Positions 14,798-55,005 of a stretch of 55,005 nucleotides of DNA are shown here, one piece after another. The translations under genes were made by a program, and so were the position numbers. This DNA comes from Girardia tigrina (lineage: Eukaryota), in NCBI GenBank assembly GCA_001938485.1, contig MQRK01244079.1, positions 8,338 to 63,342 on the forward strand, read 5' to 3'. Position 1 is the stretch's first letter, and each line of letters begins with the position of its first letter. The notes under the pieces are model-generated. The model had not been told where the DNA came from, did no database searches, and saw only the letters and a program-made list of their open reading frames with translations.

Positions 14798-15432
14798 TAA
14801 TTTATTCAATTTTGCATAAATCCTATTTTATTTTTGTTTTATTAATTTTTACAATGTTTATTAATTTGAAATATAAATTTAGATCTTTAAAATTATTTTA
14901 ATAGACATGTCCTATAAAAATTCAGTTCCTAAATAATTTTCCTTTAATTTTAAAAATTCAATTATAAATTATTTTTTAATGAGAATTTTCGTGGACAATT
15001 AACTTCAATAAAACATTATGATTTTTATTTTAAAGTGTTACAAGATATAACAAAATCTTCTTTACAATATTCTTTTACTATGAAACTGTTATTTTAATTG
15101 TGATTTTTTAAACCTAATTTTTTATAGAAGTACCTTCAATTTAATTAATAAAATATTATCATTACACTATAATTTTTTATAAAACTTATTTCATTTTAAT
15201 TAGTAAAAATATTATCTATAAACTTAAATTTTTATATATAATTTCTTTCAAAAGTTCTTTCAATTTAATTTTTTATAAAATAAGTTTTTTATTATAGTGT
15301 AATGATAATATTTTAATAATTATTTCATTTTAATTAGTAAAAATATTATTTTTTAATTTATCTCAAATATAATTATGATTTTTAATTTAAAAATATCAAA
15401 AATTTACAGTTCACCAAAAAGAACCCCTAACA
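14795..15432 (-). repeat. LTR-like dispersed repeat family B, copy 1
   Basis: 14915-15432 is the reverse complement of 53363-53970. The terminus TGTTAGGGG appears on the plus strand as CCCCTAACA ending at 15432. The left boundary is uncertain (TATA/AATA flanks). Confidence 0.7.
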
Positions 15433-24686: not shown

Positions 24687-24712
24687 TTGATTGTAGCTGT
24701 AAAGCTTATATA

Positions 24713-26470
24713 CAGTAGGAGACAAATTATTACATACACCTCTATTTTTAATGTTTTTCCTTTATAAATATTTTATTAAAATGAATATCTTTCTGATATT
24801 TTTTACAATATTCTTTATGACGATGAACACATTTTCGCAAAATTTCGTATATATATGTTCATTTTTCAAAAAGTTATAACACTTTGAACATAAAATACGA
24901 TGGACAAATTATTAAATACACAAAGACACTGTTACGCAATAAAAGTCGGAAAAGCCAAATAAAACACAAAACACATATATTTAAGGTACAAATCTTTACC
25001 TTAATGTTTCTAATATCTTATATTACCTCCTTTAGCTTTAATTACTGCATCAATCCGTCGTGGCATGCTTTCAATAACGTTCTTTATTGTCACAGTAAGG
25101 CCGACATCTTGAAACCAAACCCGATTAAGTTCGGCGACCAGACCCTCTTTGGTAGTTATGGTTTGTCGTGATAGACGGTCTTTGACCAAGGCCCATATAT
25201 TTTCGATGGGATTCAAGTCAGGCCTGTTACCCGGCCAAGGCAACATCGGAACGTTTTGCGTTTCTAAATATGTCTTCACAATCTTAGCTGTATGGCAGGG
25301 TGCCCCATCCTGCATGAATATGAAATCTTTACTTCTTGGAAACCATTTCTTTATTTGAGGAATTGCTGAATTNNNNNNNNNNNNNNNNNNNNNNNNNNNN
25401 NNNNNNNNNNNNNNNNNNNNNNGAGGAATTGCTGAATTACGTATGACATCTAAATATTTTTCCGAATTCATAATGCCATCACAGACGTGAAGTGAACTAG
25501 GGCCCTTGCAACTGATCATCCCCCACACCATTACCTTAGTTTGATGCTTAGTTCTTGGTCTGGTCGGGGGTGGTGAACCTATAGTTTGCCAAATTCGAGG
25601 CCACTCTGCATAACGGCATTCGAAAGTGCTTTCCTCACTAAAACATACCTTGTTCCATTGATCTTGAGTCCATTTACGATGCAGAAGAGCAAAAGCTAAA
25701 CGTTTTCGTTTCATTGCAGGAGTCAGCTTTGGTACTCGTCTTGCCTTAACTGATCGACAACCCAATTGATTGAGATGGTGGCACACGGTGCGAGTAGATA
25801 CACGAACTCCATAAGAATTCCATTCATTTTGAAGTTGAGCTGCAGTTGCTAAAGGATTTCTTCTGAGGTTGCGAACCAGTATTATATCCTCAATTGTTGT
25901 AGGAGCCTTTTTGCGACCACTTTTTCCTACTCTTATAGCATCGCTAGTCGAATATACAGAGTCATTCTTGCATTTTGTTACTGTCATCACGCTAACATCG
26001 CATCTTCTAGCTATTTCTCGCATTGAAAGTTCAGTATTTTTCAACAAAACCAATATTGTCACCTTCTTTTCTTTTGATATATCTTGAGACCTTCCCATTC
26101 TTTACTAAATACTGTGTTAGTTGATAAAATGATTGTAATTACACAAATTTACACATCAATTATATTACCTAGATTATGTAATAACATTGCATACTAAATT
26201 AAATTACACAATTTAAATCGTAAATCACCTTTCTGACCTTTATTGCATAACCGTGTCTTTGTGTATTTAATAATTTGTCCATCGTATTTTATGTTCAAAG
26301 TGTTATAACTTTTTAAAAAATGAACATATATATACGAAATTTTGCGAAAATGTGTTCATGGTCATAAAGAATATTGTATAAAAATATCAGAAAGATATTC
26401 ACTTTAATAAAATATTTATAAAATAAAAACATTAAAAATAGAGGTGTATGTAATAATTTGTCTCCTACTG
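24713..26470 (-). mobile_element. Full-length Tc1 DNA transposon with long IR/DR-type terminal inverted repeats
   Basis: Termini are TA|CAGTAGGAGACAAATTATTACATACAC...GTGTATGTAATAATTTGTCTCCTACTG|TA. The TIRs exceed 200 bp and are nearly identical, with an inner direct repeat GACAAATTATTAAATACAC at ~24903. Confidence 0.95.
25010..26098 (-). CDS. Tc1 (DD34E) transposase, nearly intact
   Basis: It has a paired-like HTH, VCFSEES (first catalytic D reads E), KVMVWG, FMQDGAPCH, PDLNPIENIW and VIKAKGGNIRY. It spans an N gap flanked by a 16-bp overlap. Confidence 0.9.
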   Translation of the reverse strand: MGRSQDISKEKKVTILVLLKNTELSMREIARRCDVSVMTVTKCKNDSVYSTSDAIRVGKSGRKKAPTTIEDIILVRNLRRNPLATAAQLQNEWNSYGVRVSTRTVCHHLNQLGCRSVKARRVPKLTPAMKRKRLAFALLHRKWTQDQWNKVCFSEESTFECRYAEWPRIWQTIGSPPPTRPRTKHQTKVMVWGMISCKGPSSLHVCDGIMNSEKYLDVIRNSAIPXXXXXXXXXXXXXXXXXNSAIPQIKKWFPRSKDFIFMQDGAPCHTAKIVKTYLETQNVPMLPWPGNRPDLNPIENIWALVKDRLSRQTITTKEGLVAELNRVWFQDVGLTVTIKNVIESMPRRIDAVIKAKGGNIRY

Positions 26471-28445
26471 TATGTTAAAATGATGATTACGTGATCAATT
26501 ATGCAATTACTGCTTCACGAAAATCAACAGGAGATTTAATTTTAATACTTTTTAATTTTATTTCTTTTCTTTTTAATTTATTTAATTTCTCTTTTTTAAT
26601 GTCAAGAATTGAGATCTCAAATAAAGCACTGTATATAAAGATGTTATTTCAACTGTAAATGGATCCAATATTCGACTCATGCAAACAGATAATTTTTACT
26701 CATTGAGCATTTTAACAATTACTTTCAATAAAAAGTAAGTCGTTTGTAGTAAACTTTTCATACCGTTTAATAAATAAACGTTTAGGTTTAATAACAAAAA
26801 AATAAAGAATAAGAAAGTTTTCATCACTACGACTGCGGATTACTGTCCAACGACATTATTAATAAAAGATTGTTTTGAGCTTTCAACAGTGTTCGTCGGA
26901 GAATCCTGATTTCCTTTTCCAAATTTAGTAAATGATTTCTACATTCCAATCGTGTTGCCAGGCTGTTTATTTCTGAATTGTCAAGACATTTGAAGCACAT
27001 CAGATCCATCATGCTCACATATTTCGTTACGCCCCTAATTTCATTTACTTCCACTAATTGGATGACAACCTTTCTTTCTTCATTCTGAGCTATTTTCAAT
27101 TTTTCTTGCATTATTAAATCTTCCGCCATTTTCACATTTTTAACGAAATTAAAATCGCGATTTGTCATGCCATAAAGATTTGATATAACAGATTTTTCAG
27201 GTTTGGAAGATTTGGAAGATAACCATTTGAATCCGAAATTAATTTTTAATTAGAATTAAAACGTCAGTGATTTGTTCAAGTAATCCATATCGGACTACTT
27301 CGATACATGTCATTATTTCAGGTTGAGATTTTCAGGAATCTTTCTCACACGATACTGTTTCTGATGTTCGATATTGATAGTTTATTTTAAGCACTTTATT
27401 TTTTTCTTCATACATTTTAATAAGACTTGTTACATTTGGAGAACGACTACGATGTGGCACTTCGGAGTTACTGTTATTTAACTCGACAACTTCAGAGAGA
27501 GCTATAAGACTGTTTATCCCGTTTTCTTGATTAATTGATGACAATTTGATTGCTTCATAATGATTTGTATTTCGAATGCGAGACGTTAAAATATTGGACT
27601 GGCTTTAAATATTATAGTTCTATGTTGCCCCGTTTTATTTTATGTGAAGTTTAGTGTTAACGTTTCTTTGAATTAAATCTTAATAATTAAATAGTGTGTT
27701 TAATTAACAAATTGTCCTATTATTAGTAGTGGAATTGGTTAAATTCTTTTATTTAATTTTTTCATGTTGTAATTTATAATATCTTTATATAAAATCAAGC
27801 AGAGAAAATAATTCAGCAATTATCATTCAGATATAAAAACTATAAGGTTTTCAAACGATTTGAATTGGAAATTAATTATAATTAATTTACAATGTGGGCC
27901 TACTGAAATATGCGCTTTTCGGACTGTGCGCTTATTTCTGGTTACCAGTTTAATTTTGTATTAATTTTGCGTCAATTTTTAATTTTATATTTATAATTTT
28001 CTTTCATTGTTATTTTTGTTTAAATAATACCACCAGGATGAATTTCTCATAAAGCCAACTAATTTATTTGACCAATTTATTTATATATAACCTACATCTC
28101 AGAGGCGCCCGAGTCGTGAACATATCGTTGTCTCTTTTTAAGTTAATTAAGTTAACTTTAAGTTAACTCAGTCGTTAGTGTAATGTGACGTGCGACGTTT
28201 GTATATATGTGGTAAGTGCAATTTACGACTATTTGATGCGCACTCAAAGCGTATGGTTGTCTTTCCAAGACTCAGTCATATGGTTTTCTTTCTGTGGTTA
28301 AACAGCTGATTGATAAAGTTGCAAAATTACCGTCCAAATCTTTCAATTTCTACAACAATGAAAAATTCAATTATATTGATAGCATGTTGCTCGATTTAAC
28401 AACGAAATCAATATTAACCTACAAAACCGACCGTCCACTTGATGA

Positions 28446-31338
28446 TTTAAAATATGATGATTTTTTCGATTTACAAAAACTATATTATTTAAACAAATTA
28501 GAATTAATCCATTAAATTACACTCCCCCATGATCTACAGATCAAATCACATAATCGTCCAGTTACTGAGGTACCTTCCGTACCTGCATCGGTCGTTCAGT
28601 GGAATCTGTAGCTCTACCTCTTGCGTTGTCGGTCCACTCATTTCGTCTTTACTGTCTGAAATGCGATCATCGGAATCCACTAACATCAGTTGTCGATTGT
28701 CCACTGCTCTCCTGATGTGGCATATATGTCTCGTGATTCCATCGTCGTCCAGCTCCACCCCAACTGCAGACTTCAACGATGTAATTGCATACTGCCCCGT
28801 CCATGGTTCAGCGAATTTCCTGCCGACTCTCAAATAAACATTTTCACCAATACTAAACGGGTTTTTCTCCGTAGCGTCATACTCATCATTCGAGATGCAC
28901 TCCGAGATGAATTTACATTCAACTTGACGCTCATCTCGAATCATTAGTAGTCGAGGCTTGGCATGGAACATCAATTCATAGGGCCCCGCATCCCGGTGAC
29001 CCGTCGTACTGTGGCACCAAAACACACATTCGCTGATAGACTTTGCACATCTCAAAACCATTGTCTTAATGGTGCGGTGATTTCTCTCGCACATCCCATT
29101 ACCTTGATGCCGATAGGCTACGGTGAACCCTTGCTCGACTCTACATTTATCTAACAACCGTCTTACTGGGGAACTTCGATAGACAGCCGCATTATCGGAA
29201 AAGAAACGTTTCGGTAGTCCAAATTCTGAGCATACGCTATCGATATGCCAAATTTATTTCCTCGGCGGATTCACTGCGCAACTTTCTTCAAATACAAAAT
29301 CTTGTTGCTGAATCCACTATGGTCAGATACGCGACACCGTTGAAATAGGTCACATCGCTATAAAGATCTTTGAACACTCAAAATATCGCTTGATAACTTC
29401 CTTAACTTGATCCTACTTTATTGCATTAGTCTCATATTTTTCCCTCAACAGTTATTTCGTCCCATCGACTCCAAAGTGAAAGATATCATGAATTTCTTGA
29501 TCTCATCAACATTTGGATACTGATTTACTTCAATGACGTTTACTTCCACTTTCCTGTTTAGCCATTGTTTTGGAACCATTGTCAAACAATCTGCTATATT
29601 CAATTAAGATTTAACCAATTCCAGTTCAACTTCCAGTTTTTCTTGATCTTTCAACTTTCTCATGATATCAGGTCTTCGACATACCAAATTTTCAGATAAC
29701 GTGCGGGTTCTTGGGTTGTGTGTATTCTTGAATACTGCCATGAGCCATCCATACACTGTTGCTGAGTCCGTCATCAGCTTGAACTTATGAAAACCCCAGG
29801 TTATTGCCAAGTTTATTCCTCTTATGGCCGCATCCAGTTCACTTATATTAATATGGTTTGTATCGTCTTCTTTCGTTAACCAAGCAGTGTCTTCAACGAT
29901 ATTACCGTTAATACACAATAGTACGCTCATTGTTATACTACATGCATCTGTCCAAATGACAACATTATTATTACAATTGCTGGATCTCCATCCATCCTCA
30001 GCCTTTGACAGATTTCATTAACTTTATGATGTCTTTTGGCACTACTTCATTCCAGCCTACCTTGTATTTTGCAGTTAATCTCTGAATGTAGACACAAGCA
30101 ACTCGTAACTATCGTGCAACTGGTACATGGCCTATCCACTCCCCTAAAATTCCATGTACTTCTCTTCTGAAGCTCCTTAGTTATGAGCTTTTGGTCTCTT
30201 CTCTACTGCTAATTGCTTTGAACATTCAGTCCAAGCACCCTAACTTCTTTGTCTAAGACAATCCGTTCTATGGGTTTAGACTCCAACCCAAACCAGCGAA
30301 AAATTCCTGGGATTTGTGCAACCTCTTCTAATAAGAGTGGCATTACTCACCGTGTCGATCATCCCCTTCATCATTTTCCCGTCGATTAGTGCTTGACGAA
30401 TCAATAAATTCGGAATAACAGCTGAACATGAATAAATTAATGGCGATTCCGAATTTTTGAGGCGATTCACGGCCGCCTTGTTGACACAGTTGTCCTCGGG
30501 GCGTTGTGGCTTTTTATAGGCGTAACTATTGCCGTAAGTTACAACACCACCGCCTCTTACTGTGATATTTGGTCCTACGCCATTCACTTGGGAGAAGTTG
30601 GACCCGAGACCCCTTCCCTCTGTCATTTCCCGACATGTTACAGTTTGCTTTTATAAGTCCGACTGCTCCGCATTTAAAGCATTTACCTCTATACGTATTC
30701 TGTGTGTGACAAAGTCGATTACAACTAACACATCGAAATTTACTGTTGGTCGCCGCAATCACTTCTTGAAGACGTTGATGAGGCGATATCGTTTTGGCCA
30801 AGTTCACCACACTCTTGAACATGAATTCGACGTCTAATCTTGACTGCACCTCTATTTTTAATTGATCCGATAAACTGTGAATAAATGTCATTGTACAAAA
30901 CGCATCGATCGGATCCTGGTCCCCAACAACGGTCAGTCAGCTGATTAATCTCGGCCGCCGACACGTCCGATCTGTCACCAGGGAGAATCTTCTTTTGACC
31001 AAGCAACAGCCATGCGTCAAATCTCCCCAAACCAAACACTCGGAGCAACTCACTTTTGATTTCCTTGAAACTTCTCTGTTGATCCAGCGATAAGACCTTC
31101 CACGTGTCGTATGCAGGTCCGTCCAACAGCATGACCAAGCATGAGACTTCTTTTTCCATTAACCCGTCTACCTCGATGGTAAACTCTAATCGGTAGATCC
31201 AACGTTCCACGTCCTCCCCACCATCAAATTTCTTCAAATTACTGATAGCTTTTATAGCTGCGATAGCTTGTAAAATAAGATGATTTTTTTCGATTTACAA
31301 AATCTATATTATTCAAATAAATTAGAATTCATCCATTA
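28446..31338 (-). mobile_element. Ty3/Gypsy LTR retrotransposon, internally deleted (gag-PR-[RT mostly missing]-RH-IN), very short LTRs
   Basis: Domains are gag (KFDGGEDVERW, zinc-knuckle remnants), protease MIDTVSNATLI, RNase H VIWTDAC...NISELDA...LMTDS, and integrase YRHQGNGMCERNHRTIK. The PPT GGGGGAG abuts TGT at 28521. Direct repeats lie at 28446-28521 and 31269-31338. Confidence 0.9.
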
Positions 31339-32550
31339 TGTGAGAAGTGGTTGCAACGTCTATATCAGAATTCATTTTTTTTNNNNNNNNNNNNNNNNNN
31401 NNNNNNNNNNNNNNNNNNNNNNNNNNNNNNNNNNNNNNNNNNNNNNNNNNNNNNNNNNNNNNNNNNNNNNNNNNNNNNNNNNNNNNNNNNNNNNNNNNNN
31501 NNNNNNNNNNNNNNNNNNNNNNNNNNNNNNNNNNNNNNNNNNNNNNNNNNNNNNNNNNNNNNNNNNNNNNNNNNNNNNNNNNNNNNNNNNNNNNNNNNNN
31601 NNNNNNNNNNNNNNNNNNNNNNNNNNNNNNNNNNNNNNNNNNNNNNNNNNNNNNNNNNNNNNNNNNNNNNNNNNNNNNNNNNNNNNNNNNNNNNNNNNNN
31701 NNNNNNNNNNNNNNNNNNNNNNNNNNNNNNNNNNNNNNNNNNNNNNNNNNNNNNNNNNNNNNNNNNNNNNNNNNNNNNNNNNNNNNNNNNNNNNNNNNNN
31801 NNNNNNNNNNNNNNNNNNNNAATTTTTAATTTTTTAAAATATTTAATAAGCAAATTAACATAAAAATATTTTACCCTTTAAATTAAAAAATAATAAACTA
31901 TTCAGGCGAGATAAAAATTTAAATTAACCCCTCATACATTAAATTACAGTTGCGAACCAACTGAATCGATTTGAGATGTGCTGCGAGAAATGGGTGTGTC
32001 AATGGCACCAACCAATGTAATACGAACGACGAAATCGGTCAATAATCAAAAGATTAACCGGTCAACCGACCAACCGACAAGAAAAAGCGAGAAATTATCA
32101 TTCAGACGGAATTTTTCACGATTATTTTACTCAAAAAATGATTTCTAATTAAATATTGTTGATAATTATTTTATTATTCTATTTAATGAATTTATTGATA
32201 ATAAAAATACGTAATTAAAAATAACACTAATACTTTTTTTCAATAATTACTTTATCAATAAAATTAATATGGATAATTTTAATGAAAAACTTAGTAGAAA
32301 TGCTTTTCTAATAATAGTAATAAACATATTTAGAGAAAATTATACCGATTTTTTTTCAAAAGTTTACACAAAAATCGATATTAATGAACCAATATAATTG
32401 GACGACAACAATAGAAATTATATTTTTTCATTCTTTAGAAACAAAATGTTCGATTTTTCTTTAATGAATTTTCTAAATAATGATATCTCAGCAAATAATA
32501 TTGCTAAAAATAATTACTTCATCAATAAATTTTACCATTGTTATCTAATA

Positions 32551-39221: not shown

Positions 39222-40755
39222 GGGAGCGGGTCAAAATCCCGACAGGCCAAAATTCCAAATGAATCCCACAAACCCAAAAATAAAAAATGTTTATAGATAT
39301 CGTATAGCTTACAATATTAATTATTACCAGAAAAAAACATGACTATTTTCTCGATTAAGTAATAATTTTAAACTAAAATAATAACTTCAAAATTCAAAAA
39401 AACAAAAATATAAATACGAAATATGTCAATCAAAAATTTTATTTATTACTGTTGTTCTTTCTGAAATTCTGTAATTAACCTGTGAAATCCAACATGTGCT
39501 CGTCCAATAAGGCATCCCAATCTTCGATGCCAAGCTTCGACGACATTCTGAGTACGTCAAATGTCTTGTTTAGAATCATAAACCGTCCATACTGTTGGTG
39601 GAAATAAAGGTGATGCACGAAAAACTGTGCCATCACGCATATGTCTTCTAATTCTTCCATGTATATAATTATTTTGAAACCAATCCACGACATTCTTAGT
39701 TTGTTGTGGTAAATGTTGTTTCAAAATATCAAATGCTTTTGGTATCTCATTCGGAGGAAGAAACGCCAATGCACAAATATGTCTAAGCGGCAAACTAAAT
39801 TCTTCATCATTACCATACTGAGAAGCCAGTCCACTACCTTGGACTTTCCTCCAGAAACTGTCCCAGATGATAAAAACACTTTATTATGAGCTACATGAAA
39901 TTCGCATTTCAATACATTAATGGCAGAAAGTTCGAGATCCATCAAAATCACTTGTGGTTTTAGGTCAATGTCATTTTCCTGGGCAAAATCAATTAGATCT
40001 TGGAATAATCATTTGTAGTTATCTTCGCGCTTGCTTGTCCTTAAAGCATAAACTAATGGGAGAATTCGATCGTTAACGCCACCAAATGGGGCGTGAATTG
40101 TATAACTGAAAAAAAATATTAGGTACAGTTTTAATTTCGTAATTAAATGAACATTTAATTTTATAACTATTAATTAATAGTTATTAATTAACATAATTAT
40201 ATATTACTAAAGAATAATCGATAGTAGATTAAGAAATAAAATTAAAAATAAAGCCAAAGTAATGTACTTAATTAGTTACTAAATTTATGGAAATTTAAGA
40301 ATCTCACTAATATTTAATTCGCATCACAAGAAATATTACTACAATACTATTGTGATCAAGAAAAAGAAGAAGCTCATAGCAATCAAAAAGACAGTCAGAA
40401 GACTTCATAATAGCCTCTACCATTTGTTTATCTTATTCATCAACCAAACTAGAAATAATATCACTAAACAATAAATAAATAAATATTATTATACATCATT
40501 AATTAATTGGGATTCTAGACTGTTAAGATTCGTGAACCGTTTTTTTCCTACAGGCAAAAAACGGATTTTCGTCAAATGTTTGAAAAAACCGTTTTTTTGA
40601 CAAAAATGAGAAAACAGCAACTAAACGACAACAAATTTTAAACAGACTTTCAAAAAATTTTCAATCAAATACTCGATAAAATTTTGTCGGGATTTTTGGC
40701 TGTCGGGATTTTGGTCTGTCGGGATTTTGGCCTGTCGGGATTTCGGGGTAGACCC
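39222..40755 (-). mobile_element. MULE/Mutator DNA transposon, internally deleted, with TSD
   Basis: It has GGG...CCC termini with subterminal repeats AAAATCCCGACAG / CTGTCGGGATTTT, and an 8-bp duplication ATCAATTA (39214-39221, 40756-40763). Transposase fragments include IHAPFGG...LPLVYAL, ILMDLELSAIN, ALAFLPPNEI, WFQNNYI and PLFPPTVW. Confidence 0.9.
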
Positions 40756-46900: not shown

Positions 46901-47703
46901 ACGAATTATATTATGAACAATGTATTCGAGTGAGATATTAAAATGGAAATTAGACTTTTCTAAGGTTCGAAAAATATTAAACGTTTTTTTTGCCGGACAA
47001 AACACGAAAAAATCAAAAATATAATTGATTATTAAAAAAAATATTTTTTGGATTTTAAGTCTAGATTATTTGGATTTCTTCGTTTTTTGTACTCTTATTG
47101 TGAGGGATAATTGTGAATGTTGTAAGTTTGTTGTTTTTATGCTGTTTAGATTTGTGACTCTCCTACTCAGATGGGATTGATATGTTATTTTATTAATTAT
47201 TTGAATCTAATGAAATTNNNNNNNNNNNNNNNNNNNNNNNNNNNNNNNNNNNNNNNNNNNNNNNNNNNNNNNNNNNNNNNNNNNNNNNNNNNNNNNNNNN
47301 NNNNNNNNNNNNNNNNNNNNNNNNNNNNNNNNNNNNNNNNNNNNNNNNNNNNNNNNNNNNNNNNNNNNNNNNNNNNNNNNNNNNNNNNNNNNNNNNNNNN
47401 NNNNNNNNNNNNNNNNNNNNNNNNNNNNNNNNNNNNNNNNNNNNNNNNNNNNNNNNNNNNNNNNNNNNNNNNNNNNNNNNNNNNNNNNNNNNNNNNNNNN
47501 NNNNNNNNNNNNNNNNNNNNNNNNNNNNNNNNNNNNNNNNNNNNNNNNNNNNNNNNNNNNNNNNNNNNNNNNNNNNNNNNNNNNNNNNNNNNNNNNNNNN
47601 NNNNNNNNNNNNNNNNNNNNNNNNNNNNNNNNNNNNNNNNNNNNNNNNNNNNNATATATATATATATATATATATATATGACATTAAGATTTATTTGTAA
47701 AAA

Positions 47704-48978
47704 AATGAATAACAAACGCCATTTAAAAAGTTTTTATTTGTCAAAACCTGTTTAATCATGAATGGTACATGCAAGTTGATGGAGTGACAATGGGGTCTCC
47801 ATTAGCACCTTTAATGGCTTCAATATTTCTTCAAAGTTTCGAGAAAAAATACAATTTTGTTGAAGGAAACATGCCTTTATTTTACACTAGATATGTTGAT
47901 GATATCTTCTTGATTTTTGAAAATAAAAACCATATAGATAATTTTTTACAATTTAGGAATCAATTTCATCCAAATATGAGATTTACCAGCGAAATCGAAT
48001 CAGGGGACAAGATTTCATTTTTGGATGTATTAATTGAAAGAAAATCGAAGGGCTATGAAACTGAAGTATTTCAAAAGAGTACTGACACGGGTTTATACAA
48101 TAATCCTATGAGTTTCTGTGATCCCCAGTACAATAAACATATGGTGAAAGGATTAATTCACAGAATATGGAATTTATCTTCTACGTATTGTGGTGTGGAT
48201 AAGTGTATTGTTGATCTTAAAAGTAGGTTAGAAAATAATGGGTACAATGAAAATTATTTAAATAATTTGATAAAAAAACAATTGACTCTATTCGTGAAAA
48301 TCTAATAATAAAAATGAAAACATTATAAATAATGATATTGGTAATGTAATAAAAACAATAAATTTAAAATTACCATTTTCTGAAGGCTTGTCTGATTTGA
48401 TGAAAGGCCTAATGAAAAAAGGTTCCTTCGGGTTTTAATTAGCGGGTGATCTTTATAACTAATAAACTATCGAGATATTTCTCAAATAAATCAAAAACTC
48501 CATCGGGTATCCAAGCTAATCTAGTATATCAATTTAAATGTCACAAGTGTGAATCCTTGTACATTAGAGAAACAAATCGTCATCTCCGCACTAGAATAGC
48601 TGAACACACCCAATTGAGTAGGAATAACTCGATTCTAGATCACATTAAAAAATGCAGAAATAGAGATAAAGTTAACTATGAAACTGAATTTACAGTTTTG
48701 AAGAAAAATTTTGACACATATCATGAAAGGATATTTCACAGAGGCATTATTAATAAAGCATTTAAAACCATGCTTAAATGTTCAAAGTGAATTATCCAAT
48801 CATATTAAAATCTTTTAATATTAATTAAAAAAAAAGAAAAAAAAGATTGATTACGTAATAGTCAATGTGCCATATAAATGACTTGTAATTTGAAATTTAC
48901 TTCACAACTGATGATTCCGTAATGGCTAAGCATGTTTTGACAAATAAAAAACTTTTTAAATGGCGTTTGTTATTCATT
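47704..48978 (+). mobile_element. 5'-truncated Penelope-like retroelement (RT + GIY-YIG) with inverted terminal duplication, near (TA)n tracts
   Basis: RT motifs are QVDGVTMGSPLAP, YTRYVDDIF and ISFLDV. The endonuclease reads NLVYQFKCHKCESLYI(R)ETNRHLRTRIAEH. A ~45-bp inverted repeat (47704-47747 vs 48934-48978) is present, with TA microsatellites on both sides. Confidence 0.92.
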
Positions 48979-49195
48979 ATATATATATATATATTAATAT
49001 AATATAAACCTAATCATTGTGAGTATACTATCTAAATATCTTTTTCCTAGTTCTCAACGCAAACAACAGTTATAAAAACACTTATTCAGATATAGCATTA
49101 ATGCAATTAGTATAATATTATTAATTATTATAATAAAATAATTTATATATTTCAATCGATTAATTATTTATCGATACAATATAAAACCATATTTA

Positions 49196-51166
49196 ATGTC
49201 AGAAGCAAATATTGTCATTGAACCAACAAAACCGAAAAAACACGTCACAATCGGCATGATCACGTACATAAGTCTCCATTCGAGCACGAGTGTCATCGCG
49301 GGCCTTCGCGGAAACAAAAGTACGATAAAAGACAGTCAAATCTACGATAATAAGGACCAGAATATAATTTATTTTAGAGTCGATAAAGAAGACGACAAAT
49401 ATAAAGGTCTATATTTACAAGATTCTCAAAACCACTTAGTGTTACCAAAATCCCGAAAACAATGGCACTCACAAATGAGATTTATGTTTTGTTTAATCGC
49501 GATTAATTTCGGTGTCGAAACGATTTACAATTTACCGCTTCGAATAATCAATAATGGCGGTGTGATTTATTTGTTGTGTGTCAGTCTGTTGATGGTGATA
49601 ATTGGGGGGCCCATTTTGTTTGTCGAGATTTATTTGGGTCAGTTTTCCGGGCGCGGTATTCTCCACTGCTGGCGATTCGCCCCGATTACCAAGGGAATCG
49701 GGGTGGCCATGGGTCTGTTGTCGGTGTTCTATTGTATCTACCATTGTGTTTTGTTGGGTTGGATTTTGTTTTACGGGTTGCACGCGTTTAATAAAATAAT
49801 TCCGTGGAATTATTGCTTGAACAGGTGGAATACGCAATTGTGTACCGATACATTAAGTCACACAAAAGTCAACAACACTGAATATTCTGTGGAACAGTAT
49901 TGGTTCCGGCATGTTCTTCTGTTAGATAGGGACAATAGTTTATTTCATTCATTGCAAACGAATGACGAATCTCCACTGAAATTCGCGTCTTTCCTCTTCG
50001 TGTTTCTTCTAATTTGGTTGTTGACGTATTTGAAGTGGTCGTTGATGAGTGTCGTTTTATATTTTCTTGTCTTTTTCCCTGTTATATGCACGGCAGTTTT
50101 AATCGGAATCGGAATCAGTATTCCTGGAACGAAAAACTTTGTCAGTCTTTTTCTTTCGCCAGATTTCAAGAAACTTTATTCGTTGAAAACGTGGCTTGAT
50201 GCTATCGAATTCGTGATTATCGTGTTGAGTTTGAGTTTCGGAGGCGTGATTACGATGTCGAGTTTCTGTCACTTTAAAAACAATATCACTTTTGTTTCGA
50301 TTGTTGTGACTTTAGTTGACTTTTTTTCGTGTCTTTTTCTGTCGATATTTCCGCTTCAGGTTTTAAGTTATTTTACGAACAATTTGGTTGTTACACGAAA
50401 TAATCTATCGGTTAACTCGAAATTGAATCTCATATTTATTTATATTCCTCAAATGCTTGGAATATACGACTGGTCGAATGTCTGGACATTAGTTTACTTT
50501 ATGATGCTGTTTTCGATGGAAATGACAAAATGTTTATCGCTTGCTGAGATTATTATCACCGCCACTTTAGACACATTTCCCTTGCTTCAGATTCACAAGG
50601 GTCTTCGTATATTAGCATTTTTCACTATTTTTATTCTACAATATTCTCTAAGTTTTCTCTACACTGGTCGAAAAGGTTACATTTTTCTATCATTAACGTG
50701 TCTCTTTTCGAGCAGTCTTTGGAACTTGATGATCTGCTTACTGGAAGTCAGTTCCGTTATTTACATTTATGGATGGAATAATTTTTCGAGGGACTTGGAT
50801 ATAATTTCCAATAATCTTCTTTCTTCTCGATGTAGATACATTTTTCTAATATTACTTCCTATAACATTATCAGTTGCAATATTCTTAAAATTATATTTTC
50901 ACGAAAAATTATGGATAAACTATCTGAAAGAAGACATGGAAATCTTTAAACACAGTGACTTCATTTGTCTTGGATTGTACGGAATTTTCTTAATTCCTGT
51001 GCTCGTTTATATAATATATTATATTTGTCGATCACGGAGAACGATTGTATCAACTGTATACAAGGGCTTCAGTCCGGACAAAAGTTGGGGACCATCATTT
51101 AAAAAATACTGGATGGGTGATGAGAGGTACGAATCAAAAATATGTTATTTAAGTCACAATAAATAA
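49196..51166 (+). CDS. SLC6 / sodium:neurotransmitter symporter family protein, intronless and atypical
   Basis: The 656-aa ORF has ~12 hydrophobic segments. SLC6 motifs are RKQW...F, NNGGVIYL, GPILFVEIYLGQFSGRG...W...PITKGIG, the EL2 pair PWNYC...WNTQLC, EQYW, W.DA and YIYGW..FSRDL. AATAAA lies at and after the stop. Confidence 0.92.
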   Translation: MSEANIVIEPTKPKKHVTIGMITYISLHSSTSVIAGLRGNKSTIKDSQIYDNKDQNIIYFRVDKEDDKYKGLYLQDSQNHLVLPKSRKQWHSQMRFMFCLIAINFGVETIYNLPLRIINNGGVIYLLCVSLLMVIIGGPILFVEIYLGQFSGRGILHCWRFAPITKGIGVAMGLLSVFYCIYHCVLLGWILFYGLHAFNKIIPWNYCLNRWNTQLCTDTLSHTKVNNTEYSVEQYWFRHVLLLDRDNSLFHSLQTNDESPLKFASFLFVFLLIWLLTYLKWSLMSVVLYFLVFFPVICTAVLIGIGISIPGTKNFVSLFLSPDFKKLYSLKTWLDAIEFVIIVLSLSFGGVITMSSFCHFKNNITFVSIVVTLVDFFSCLFLSIFPLQVLSYFTNNLVVTRNNLSVNSKLNLIFIYIPQMLGIYDWSNVWTLVYFMMLFSMEMTKCLSLAEIIITATLDTFPLLQIHKGLRILAFFTIFILQYSLSFLYTGRKGYIFLSLTCLFSSSLWNLMICLLEVSSVIYIYGWNNFSRDLDIISNNLLSSRCRYIFLILLPITLSVAIFLKLYFHEKLWINYLKEDMEIFKHSDFICLGLYGIFLIPVLVYIIYYICRSRRTIVSTVYKGFSPDKSWGPSFKKYWMGDERYESKICYLSHNK

Positions 51167-53362: not shown

Positions 53363-53970
53363 TGTTAGGGGTTCTTTTTGGTGAACTGTAAATTTTTGAT
53401 ATTTTTATATTATTTTTTTTCAATATTTGAGATAAATTAAAAAAATAATATTTTACTAATTAAAATAAGTTTTATAAAATAAGTTTTTTATTATAGTGTA
53501 ATGATAATATTTTACTAATCAAATTGAAATAACTTTTGAAAGGAATTATATTTAAAAAAATTTAAGTTTATAGATAATATTTTTACTAATTAAAATGAAA
53601 TAAGTTTTATAAAAATTATAGTGTAATGATAATATTTTATTAATTAAATTGAAAGAACTTTTGTAAAAATTAGGTTTAAAAAAATCACAATTAAAATAAC
53701 AGTTTCAAAGTAAAAGAATATTGTAAAGAAGATTTTGATATATCTTGTAACACTTTAAAATAAAAATCATAATGTTCATTGAATTTAATTATCAACGAAA
53801 GTTTTATTAAAAAAAATAATTTATTGAATATTTTAAAATCAAGTTCTAAAAAAAATCATAATGTTTTATTGAATTTAATCAACGGAAATTGTCAACGGAA
53901 ATTCTCATTAAAAAATAATTTATAATTGAATTTTAAAATTAAAGAAAAATTATTTAGGAACTGAATTTTT
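53363..53970 (+). repeat. LTR-like repeat family B, copy 2 (truncated)
   Basis: It starts TGTTAGGGG and is an inverted homologue of 14915-15432. Similarity stops where the TTCGACAC array begins. Confidence 0.7.
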
Positions 53971-54082
53971 GGTTCCATAACAATTCGACACAAGACAATT
54001 CGACACACGACATTTCGACACACGTACTATTCGACACATTTATTAATTCGACATATTTTCGACATATTTTTCATTCGACACA
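53971..54082. repeat. Tandem TTCGACA(C) array, probable MULE-type transposon terminus
   Basis: Seven copies of TTCGACA occur at 11-17 bp spacing after a GG start. The architecture is the same as the MULE end at 40683-40755. Confidence 0.6.
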
Positions 54083-54224
54083 AAATTTAATATGAACAAA
54101 TGTTTTAAAAATTCATGCGTTTACAATACAGTCTACCATATTATTTTGAACATAAATTTCAATTTTTATATTATATGTATATATACATTGTAAAGTAAAA
54201 TCGATATAATAGGGATGAAAATAA

Positions 54225-54265
54225 GACGACGCGTTTCGAGATAATAATAATCCCATCATCAGGTC
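54225..54265 (-). ncRNA. Minimal type I hammerhead ribozyme with a complete catalytic core
   Basis: The minus strand reads GAC-CUGAUGA-U-GGGAU(UAUUAUU)AUCUC-GAAA-CGCG-UC^GUC. Stem I is GAC/GUC, stem II is 5 bp including one G-U, stem III is the palindrome ACGCGU, and the cleavage triplet is GUC. Confidence 0.8.
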
Positions 54266-54782
54266 ACAAAATGCACTAAGCAAGTACACTATATGGAAAC
54301 TTGCCGAAAATAAATAAAATTTATCCAATAAATTATTGAATGAAAATAAATTTATTTCACTTTTCCTTAAAACTAAGAGAAATGCACTAAATGCAATCAA
54401 TCTCATTCTCGCAAACCAACCATTGGCAGCTATCAAATACCATTTGAGAAAACGATATGTTTTTTCTATCGTTCCGCATTTTACAAGGTAACGGAGACAT
54501 ATGATAAAGATGACAACTAACAGCACACCAAAAGCTAATCTTTGAGATGAAACTTCTCACACTCAATGCAATCAACTCAATTTTAGCCTTCTCATCAAAT
54601 CCAAAACAATCCTAAATCTCATCGATGCAATTTGACTGAAATGTCTGACCAAATGGAAATCTGAGAGAACGTTGTGTTCTCTCAACTGTGGGCCTCCCAT
54701 CTCTTTCGAATGCTACTGAGCCTCTAGGCTCTTTAGAGGGTCCACCCAAAATAAAGAATCACTAGCAGCCCCCCGATAGGCC

Positions 54783-55005
54783 TCATACGGGGACGGATAG
54801 TTTCGGTCTCCGAGATCTTTTCGGCTTCCCTGTGAGAAACGACCACCCATGGGTTGTATAGCCATGGTACTGCATACCTTTGGCTATATTCGTGGACTTC
54901 GTACAGCCGCGAAAGGGACATCTGAACTCCCCCCTTGCAGTTAGATCTGCAATCCTAAAAGTCAGATGTGTTTCTTCAGTACCTATCGCTTCTTCCACCG
55001 CCGTC
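54783..55005 (-). CDS. C-terminal end of an ORF with a C2H2-type zinc finger, probably a retroelement ORF running off the window
   Basis: FRCPFRGCTKSTNIAKGMQYHGYTTHG (C-x4-C-x12-H-x4-H) is followed by a basic tail. The region is GC-rich relative to its surroundings. Confidence 0.45.
   Translation of the reverse strand, partial: TAVEEAIGTEETHLTFRIADLTARGEFRCPFRGCTKSTNIAKGMQYHGYTTHGWSFLTGKPKRSRRPKLSVPV

Follow-up and report, generated by a model that had tools for sequence, protein, structure and literature searches.

Introduction

Minimal hammerhead ribozymes are treated as a signature of Penelope elements, and the ribozymes of LINEs (non-LTR retrotransposons) have been described as 5′ HDV-like or twister motifs. 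One review assigns minimal hammerheads to Penelope elements and Terminons, locates the ribozymes of RTE elements 5′, and describes the role of the minimal hammerheads as unknown (PMC7761336). The Penelope-type consensus includes families with 6-nt palindromes, and a tested S. mansoni motif showed no activity as a monomer and weak activity as a dimer (Cervera and De la Pena, 2014; PMC4209133). For a Penelope element studied in vitro, uncut RNA was the main template, reverse transcription started downstream of the ribozyme, and cleavage required protein (PMC11167929). Terminons are giant telomeric elements with Athena-type reverse transcriptases (RTs), in which a hammerhead fold near the 3′ end is followed by a short simple-sequence stretch able to pair with the target (PMC6431247). 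Metazoan non-LTR retrozymes are non-coding repeats of low GC content with a type I hammerhead, organized as tandem units of 170-400 nt (PMC7229834; bioRxiv 10.64898/2026.07.22.740005). Some elements of the RTE clade carry 5′ HDV-like or twister ribozymes (PMC6765202, PMC7761336, PMC8501958), and LINE 3′ ends are often microsatellite-like runs, (AT)n included (PMC6007223).

Here, we analyzed a 55,005-nt stretch of Girardia tigrina DNA (contig MQRK01244079.1; hereafter the window, to which all coordinates refer), near the end of which a first-pass annotation had proposed an intact hammerhead downstream of a zinc-finger ORF. A search of the literature by title and abstract opening, which covered few subscription papers, returned no report of an RTE element or any other LINE with a hammerhead at its 3′ end, and a search of the same scope returned no RTE elements with three zinc fingers. 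It should be noted that one review sentence credits some LINEs and SINEs with hammerhead or HDV-like ribozymes (PMC6765202). This sentence tempers the novelty of the present case; the two works that it cites seem to deal with HDV-like ribozymes of LINEs and with a SINE-like hammerhead of schistosomes.

A minimal hammerhead motif of the Penelope type

A minimal type I hammerhead of the Penelope type was found on the minus strand at 54225-54265. Read 5′ to 3′, it consists of the helix I 5′ strand GAC (54265-54263), the core box CUGAUGA (54262-54256), a single extra U (54255), helix II (54254-54238; 5 bp, one being G.U, with a loop of 7 nt), the GAAA box (54237-54234), the palindrome ACGCGU of helix III (54234-54229), C17 (54228) and the helix I 3′ strand GUC (54227-54225). 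The core, the stems and the palindrome described in the first-pass annotation were all present, and the predicted cut, between 54228 and 54227, falls exactly where it had been placed. There were 23 CUGANGA sites on the two strands of the whole window, of which this one alone passed our hammerhead descriptor; block-wise dinucleotide shuffles of the window (n=150) gave two descriptor matches in all and a palindromic helix III in none (0/150). Judged against the Penelope minimal-hammerhead consensus in the supplement of PMC4209133, the motif has the core CUGANGA-H / GAAA / UH with G10.1-C11.1, a short helix I (3 bp only), a helix II of 5 bp where at least 4 bp are expected and a palindromic helix III. 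Type I topology, the extra base between positions 9 and 10.1, U-rich 5′ and AU-rich 3′ flanks and a copy that ends downstream of the cut are further features shared with the Penelope motifs of that study. From the descriptor match, the published consensus and the peptide identity of a second copy (P0026, see below), we conclude that this is a real hammerhead motif, with self-cleavage predicted from its sequence.

Folding predictions suggested that one copy is insufficient. The 76-nt hammerhead region did not adopt a hammerhead fold as a monomer (z +0.32), and the energy of the hammerhead-type fold was -3.5 kcal/mol vs -9.8 kcal/mol for the best fold; the palindrome paired with a second copy gave a duplex of -7.5 kcal/mol. 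Helix III of this hammerhead would need a second copy to form. At E<=5, Rfam yielded four weak matches in the window and none at the hammerhead. The tail at 54216-54206 (minus strand) could also form a predicted 10-bp helix with the core and helix II (54259-54250), which would block the monomer ribozyme. An AUG occurs at 54256-54254 (minus strand), at the start of helix II and 29 nt before the predicted cut. In an anole Penelope element the start codon lies 26 nt before the cut (PMC11167929); this likeness is weak, because the AUG is partly forced by the hammerhead consensus.

The window holds a single hammerhead motif, as neither a second one nor a tandem array was detected by the descriptor, the repeat search or blastn. 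With 54100-55005 as query, blastn against the window gave low-complexity matches only and no other copy among the matches listed. The DNA motif scan of GTDB gave no matches, the protein-alignment scan of GTDB gave 20 pattern matches of which none was confirmed, and no match to the hammerhead region was obtained in the plasmid and phage collections. The motif sequence was absent from the two searched supplement files of PMC4209133 and from the supplement of PMC8557442, and a full-text search for it returned 19 papers with titles on unrelated subjects. No tRNA genes were predicted in the window.

A non-coding repeat with copies on other contigs

Further copies were sought by protein searches with the stop-free, non-coding frames of the region, and they are known as spurious ORF peptides only. 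One of 499 candidates, P0026, matches 54520-54203 (87% over 106 codons) and spans the whole ribozyme; the sole candidate of the other search, P0027, matches 54689-54390 (92% over 100 codons). The two peptides come from different contigs, and since their matches overlap we regard them as parts of one repeat, which runs on the minus strand from 54689 to about 54204, has a length of at least ~486 nt and carries the hammerhead near its 3′ end. Three implied substitutions relative to the window are common to both peptides, so P0026 and P0027 may be almost the same copy and not count as independent evidence. Both long stop-free frames across the repeat lacked a Pfam or NCBIfam match and were treated as non-coding.

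The peptide of P0026 fixes 7 of the 12 conserved core bases of the hammerhead and is compatible with the other five, synonymous changes being invisible at this level. The sole change inside the motif is an Arg in P0026 vs a Gly in the window, located in helix II, which fits a replacement of G.U by A-U; the alternative Arg codon would break the pair. After about 54204 the match to P0026 stops and its peptide reads YIYIY, which, back-translated, would represent (TA)n. This point marks the 3′ boundary of the repeat, whose tail after the cut (54204-54227, minus strand) is thus ~23 nt long and ends in a short TA-rich run. Both copies readable past the cut, those of the window and of P0026, continue for these ~23 nt and retain the helix I 3′ strand, and their templates were therefore not simply cut RNAs. 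The proposal of a ribozyme-terminated retroelement other than Penelope can be retained with regard to another type of retroelement (see below) and is inexact with regard to termination at the ribozyme. A spacing of 42 nt between the hammerhead and a TA tract, close to the 41 nt in a local Penelope-like element, was considered and dropped since P0026 sets the end at ~23 nt.

A retrozyme had been another suggestion. The repeat resembles metazoan retrozymes in being non-coding, with a type I hammerhead and low GC content; unlike their tandem 170-400-nt units, it occurs once in the window and measures at least 486 nt, with one minimal Penelope-type motif, and the tandem form expected of a retrozyme was not seen. 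Compared with Penelope elements, no second direct or inverted copy of the repeat was found within the window, which ends 740 nt upstream. On its 3′ flank (53980-54070) there is a short tandem array of 15-16-nt units, with another such array at 40685-40743; both resemble subterminal repeats of DNA transposons.

The upstream ORF is the end of a LINE reverse transcriptase

The nearest ORF upstream of the repeat (54762-55005, minus strand) continues past the edge of the window. It ends ~520 nt upstream of the hammerhead on the same strand, close to the ~500 nt noted at first, and includes the C2H2-like finger reported there, a C-x4-C-x12-H-x4-H motif at 54849-54920. A search with the 73-residue ORF end returned two longer proteins among 15 candidates. 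The ORF end proved to be 95% identical over 80 codons to the C-terminus of one 695-aa protein (P0002), provided that it is read through a premature TGA at 54785-54783, six codons before the stop codon of the family (54764-54762, by comparison with P0002). The window copy is dead as a coding element. P0002 combines an RVT_1 domain (Pfam, E=4.9e-36) with C2H2 fingers in one ORF, and a wider search gave 22 proteins, with RVT_1 in 4 of the 15 representatives scanned. The finger in the window is the third and last of the ORF; its ligands are invariant in 6/6 aligned relatives, and each of these six keeps all twelve ligands of the three fingers. The Atlas search returned a zinc-finger cluster at 0.92, plus transporter clusters.

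The best solved-structure matches of a profile of the six relatives were R2 and LINE-1 ORF2, and no telomerase was present among the 37 sequences listed for this profile. Because the same ORF contains an RT domain with these closest matches and no listed telomerase, the sequence comparisons assign the zinc-finger ORF to a LINE, and neither to a Penelope element nor to a host gene. The suspicion that the ORF does not look like Penelope was therefore well founded: Penelope elements combine a telomerase-like RT with GIY-YIG, unlike the LINE RT with zinc fingers found here. P0002 and the RT of the Penelope-like element in the window did not match each other at E<1. As had been noted, no GIY-YIG domain was detected just upstream, nor did Pfam find one in P0002 or P0006, which do not include the N-terminal part of the full ORF; this negative is weak, since the GIY-YIG-like end of the Penelope-like element at 48.4-48.8 kb likewise escapes Pfam. 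Within the LINEs, we take the RT and thumb motifs to be RTE-like. No endonuclease was found in P0006 by Pfam, and the SDH motif at its start is presumably the end of an AP endonuclease. A non-LTR RT is shared with the RTE clade, as is probably a microsatellite-like 3′ end; the difference from described RTE ribozymes is that the present one is a hammerhead located 3′ of the ORF, and that the ORF ends in three C2H2 fingers.

A GC-rich hairpin is predicted over the last ORF codons (54768-54794, minus strand). The peptide encoded over it, PVGGLSGG, is kept in relatives that are otherwise 59-70% identical there. The hairpin is probably under constraint at the RNA level and probably forms the start of a structured 3′ region of the LINE, as far as the predicted fold indicates.

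With this assignment, the idea that self-cleavage forms the 3′ end of a gene is not supported, because the ORF is that of a transposon. A host zinc-finger gene with a self-cleaved mRNA 3′ end, or a chance look-alike of a hammerhead, would agree with a motif that Rfam does not score and whose monomer does not fold into a hammerhead. The finger is nevertheless the end of an RT ORF, and the motif is rare in shuffled sequence and kept in another copy; we consider both versions very improbable.

The junction between LINE and repeat

The central question is whether the LINE and the repeat belong together. We favor the reading, with about an even chance of being correct, that the final ~800 nt of the window form the 3′ end of a single dead RTE-like LINE, with a ~560-nt 3′ UTR that contains the hammerhead and was copied from uncleaved RNA. 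The repeat lies on the strand of the LINE and begins within 72 nt of the family stop codon, which we counted in favor of this reading. The 72 nt from the stop codon to the start of the repeat match (54690-54761, minus strand) are bridged by no other copy, and contain no simple-repeat tail, no (TA)n, no target duplication and no inverted tail; the only (TA)n, a kind of run in which LINEs often finish (PMC6007223), would follow the hammerhead. In the 430 nt before the hammerhead, no trace of Penelope coding sequence was found (best tblastx E=0.21, no Pfam or NCBIfam match), a weak test, unlike in the local Penelope-like element, in which the hammerhead-like motif lies ~90-120 nt past the ORF end and an inverted 5′ tail is present. 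The helix II change in P0026, which fits kept pairing, the palindrome duplex energy and the role of uncut RNA as the main Penelope template in vitro were also counted in favor.

Several observations were counted against a LINE 3′ UTR. The ORF and the hammerhead are spanned by the window sequence alone, and the other copies are two in number and available as peptides. The P0027 match starts at 54689, and a separate element could have its natural 5′ boundary there; the first 22 residues of P0027 match the window in no register tested, and a four-residue match of its N-terminus near the ORF end (E=9.7) was taken as chance. GC content is 53% in the ORF and 48% in the gap, and falls to 37% or less within the repeat, although in 50-nt bins across the junction the change is a gradual slope. 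Predicted pairing across the junction varied with the window folded. Similarity between gap and repeat did not exceed that of shuffles (64/500), nor did their duplex energy (246/300), and internal repeats at the junction were equalled in 10 of 100 shuffles. The minimum of the sliding fold z-scores was -2.5 among 23 windows. The UTR could also be short, as the conserved hairpin over the last codons may indicate. Reviews, moreover, assign this type of hammerhead to Penelope elements and Terminons, and RTE ribozymes to the 5′ side (PMC6765202, PMC7761336).

The main competitor is a pair of unrelated repeats, namely a LINE with a short UTR and a separate Penelope pseudo-LTR fragment or retrozyme-like monomer of ~490-560 nt inserted next to or into it. 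It would explain why the P0027 match begins at 54689 with a step down in GC nearby. The motif fully matches the Penelope minimal-hammerhead consensus, most such motifs are dispersed single copies (PMC4209133), and at a distance of 5 kb there is a Penelope-like element whose hammerhead-like motif has decayed. Penelope-like elements also prefer (TA)n targets (PMC8557442), and the one in the window is flanked by (TA)n. Chance adjacency is plausible since the window is dense with transposon fragments. Such an insertion would, however, need the orientation of the LINE and a position no more than 72 nt from its stop codon, and the gap shows neither a LINE tail nor 5′-side (TA)n, target duplication or inverted tail; nor is there a Penelope coding remnant, within the limits of the weak test above. 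We consider two unrelated repeats possible, though rather doubtful. By a rough weighing, abutment within 72 nt by chance would be rare, and so would a LINE-hammerhead pairing not described so far.

Non-LTR RTs are able to switch templates. In a one-off chimera confined to this locus, the LINE RT would have copied a non-autonomous hammerhead element of ~486 nt up to 54689 and then switched to LINE RNA, which would account at once for the missing tail or spacer and the sharp start of the P0027 match. This requires two rare events vs a single truncation if the hammerhead belongs to the LINE 3′ UTR; no other copy sharing this 5′ boundary was observed. A chimera thus appears decidedly unlikely.

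A possible role of the hammerhead in the LINE

If the hammerhead is part of the LINE 3′ UTR, the UTR would be continuous across the 72-nt gap and P0027 would be a 5′-truncated copy. The element would close with a TA-rich tail, with the hammerhead 23 nt from its end. A lone hammerhead would be silent, helix III forming only when two palindromes pair. As the lone motif would be silent, target-primed reverse transcription by the RT could begin at the TA tail of an uncut RNA, and the ribozyme would be inherited whole. Cutting would occur only when two copies meet, either in read-through RNA of adjacent copies or when two RNAs come together, and it would trim read-through RNA to unit length. Retention of the ~23-nt tail and the helix I 3′ strand agrees with a motif that does nothing by itself and cuts only upon pairing with a second copy. 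A resident Penelope element would be the probable source of the module. Should the motif be the LINE's own, trimming of read-through RNA is its likeliest job; alternatively, it may serve in a Terminon-like presentation of the simple-sequence tail (PMC6431247), although the present locus has a LINE RT and a TA-rich end in place of the telomeric setting and Athena-type RTs of Terminons.

A stronger proposal is that an RTE-like LINE family whose ORF ends in three zinc fingers adopted a dimer-dependent Penelope-type hammerhead as a working 3′ module, which is kept across its divergent members P0004, P0005, P0006, P0008 and P0015. This module would either act as proposed for Penelope, turning the read-through RNA of neighboring copies into templates of unit length that may be circular, or present the TA tail to (TA)n targets, as in Terminons at telomeres. 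We regard this stronger proposal as unlikely. A hammerhead in a LINE 3′ UTR would mean that the module moves between retroelement classes and would point to LINEs as carriers of some of the many dispersed motifs without an assignment; its job would become testable in an element with a well-understood copying mechanism. If LINE and repeat are only neighbors, the motif would be an ordinary Penelope remnant.

Other elements in the window

The window is AT-rich (21-42% GC in 2-kb bins), contains assembly gaps and is populated by many transposon fragments. A 5′-truncated Penelope-like element lies between (TA)n runs at 47680-48978 (plus strand), with an RT fragment recognized by Pfam as RVT_1 and a GIY-YIG-like end assigned by eye. 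It has a decayed hammerhead-like motif at ~48904-48939, with the first core box intact and two mismatches in the second, and an inverted copy of its last 45 nt at 47704-47747, which ends 2-3 nt from the predicted cut. This position hints that the cut site shapes the inverted tail of this element. An intronless frame of 674 codons at 49142-51166 (plus strand) encodes a divergent SLC6 (SNF) transporter (Pfam E=1.3e-65). A Tc1-like transposase frame (DDE_3) is located at 24710-26473 between long inverted repeats and is broken by an assembly gap. Fragmented ORFs resembling those of an LTR retrotransposon (28460-31340, minus strand) include an RNase H match and, by eye, gag- and integrase-like parts, flanked by two similar 54-nt direct repeats. 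Finally, an AT-rich repeat of ~430 nt occurs in two inverted copies that are 87% identical (53423-53842 and 14944-15370).
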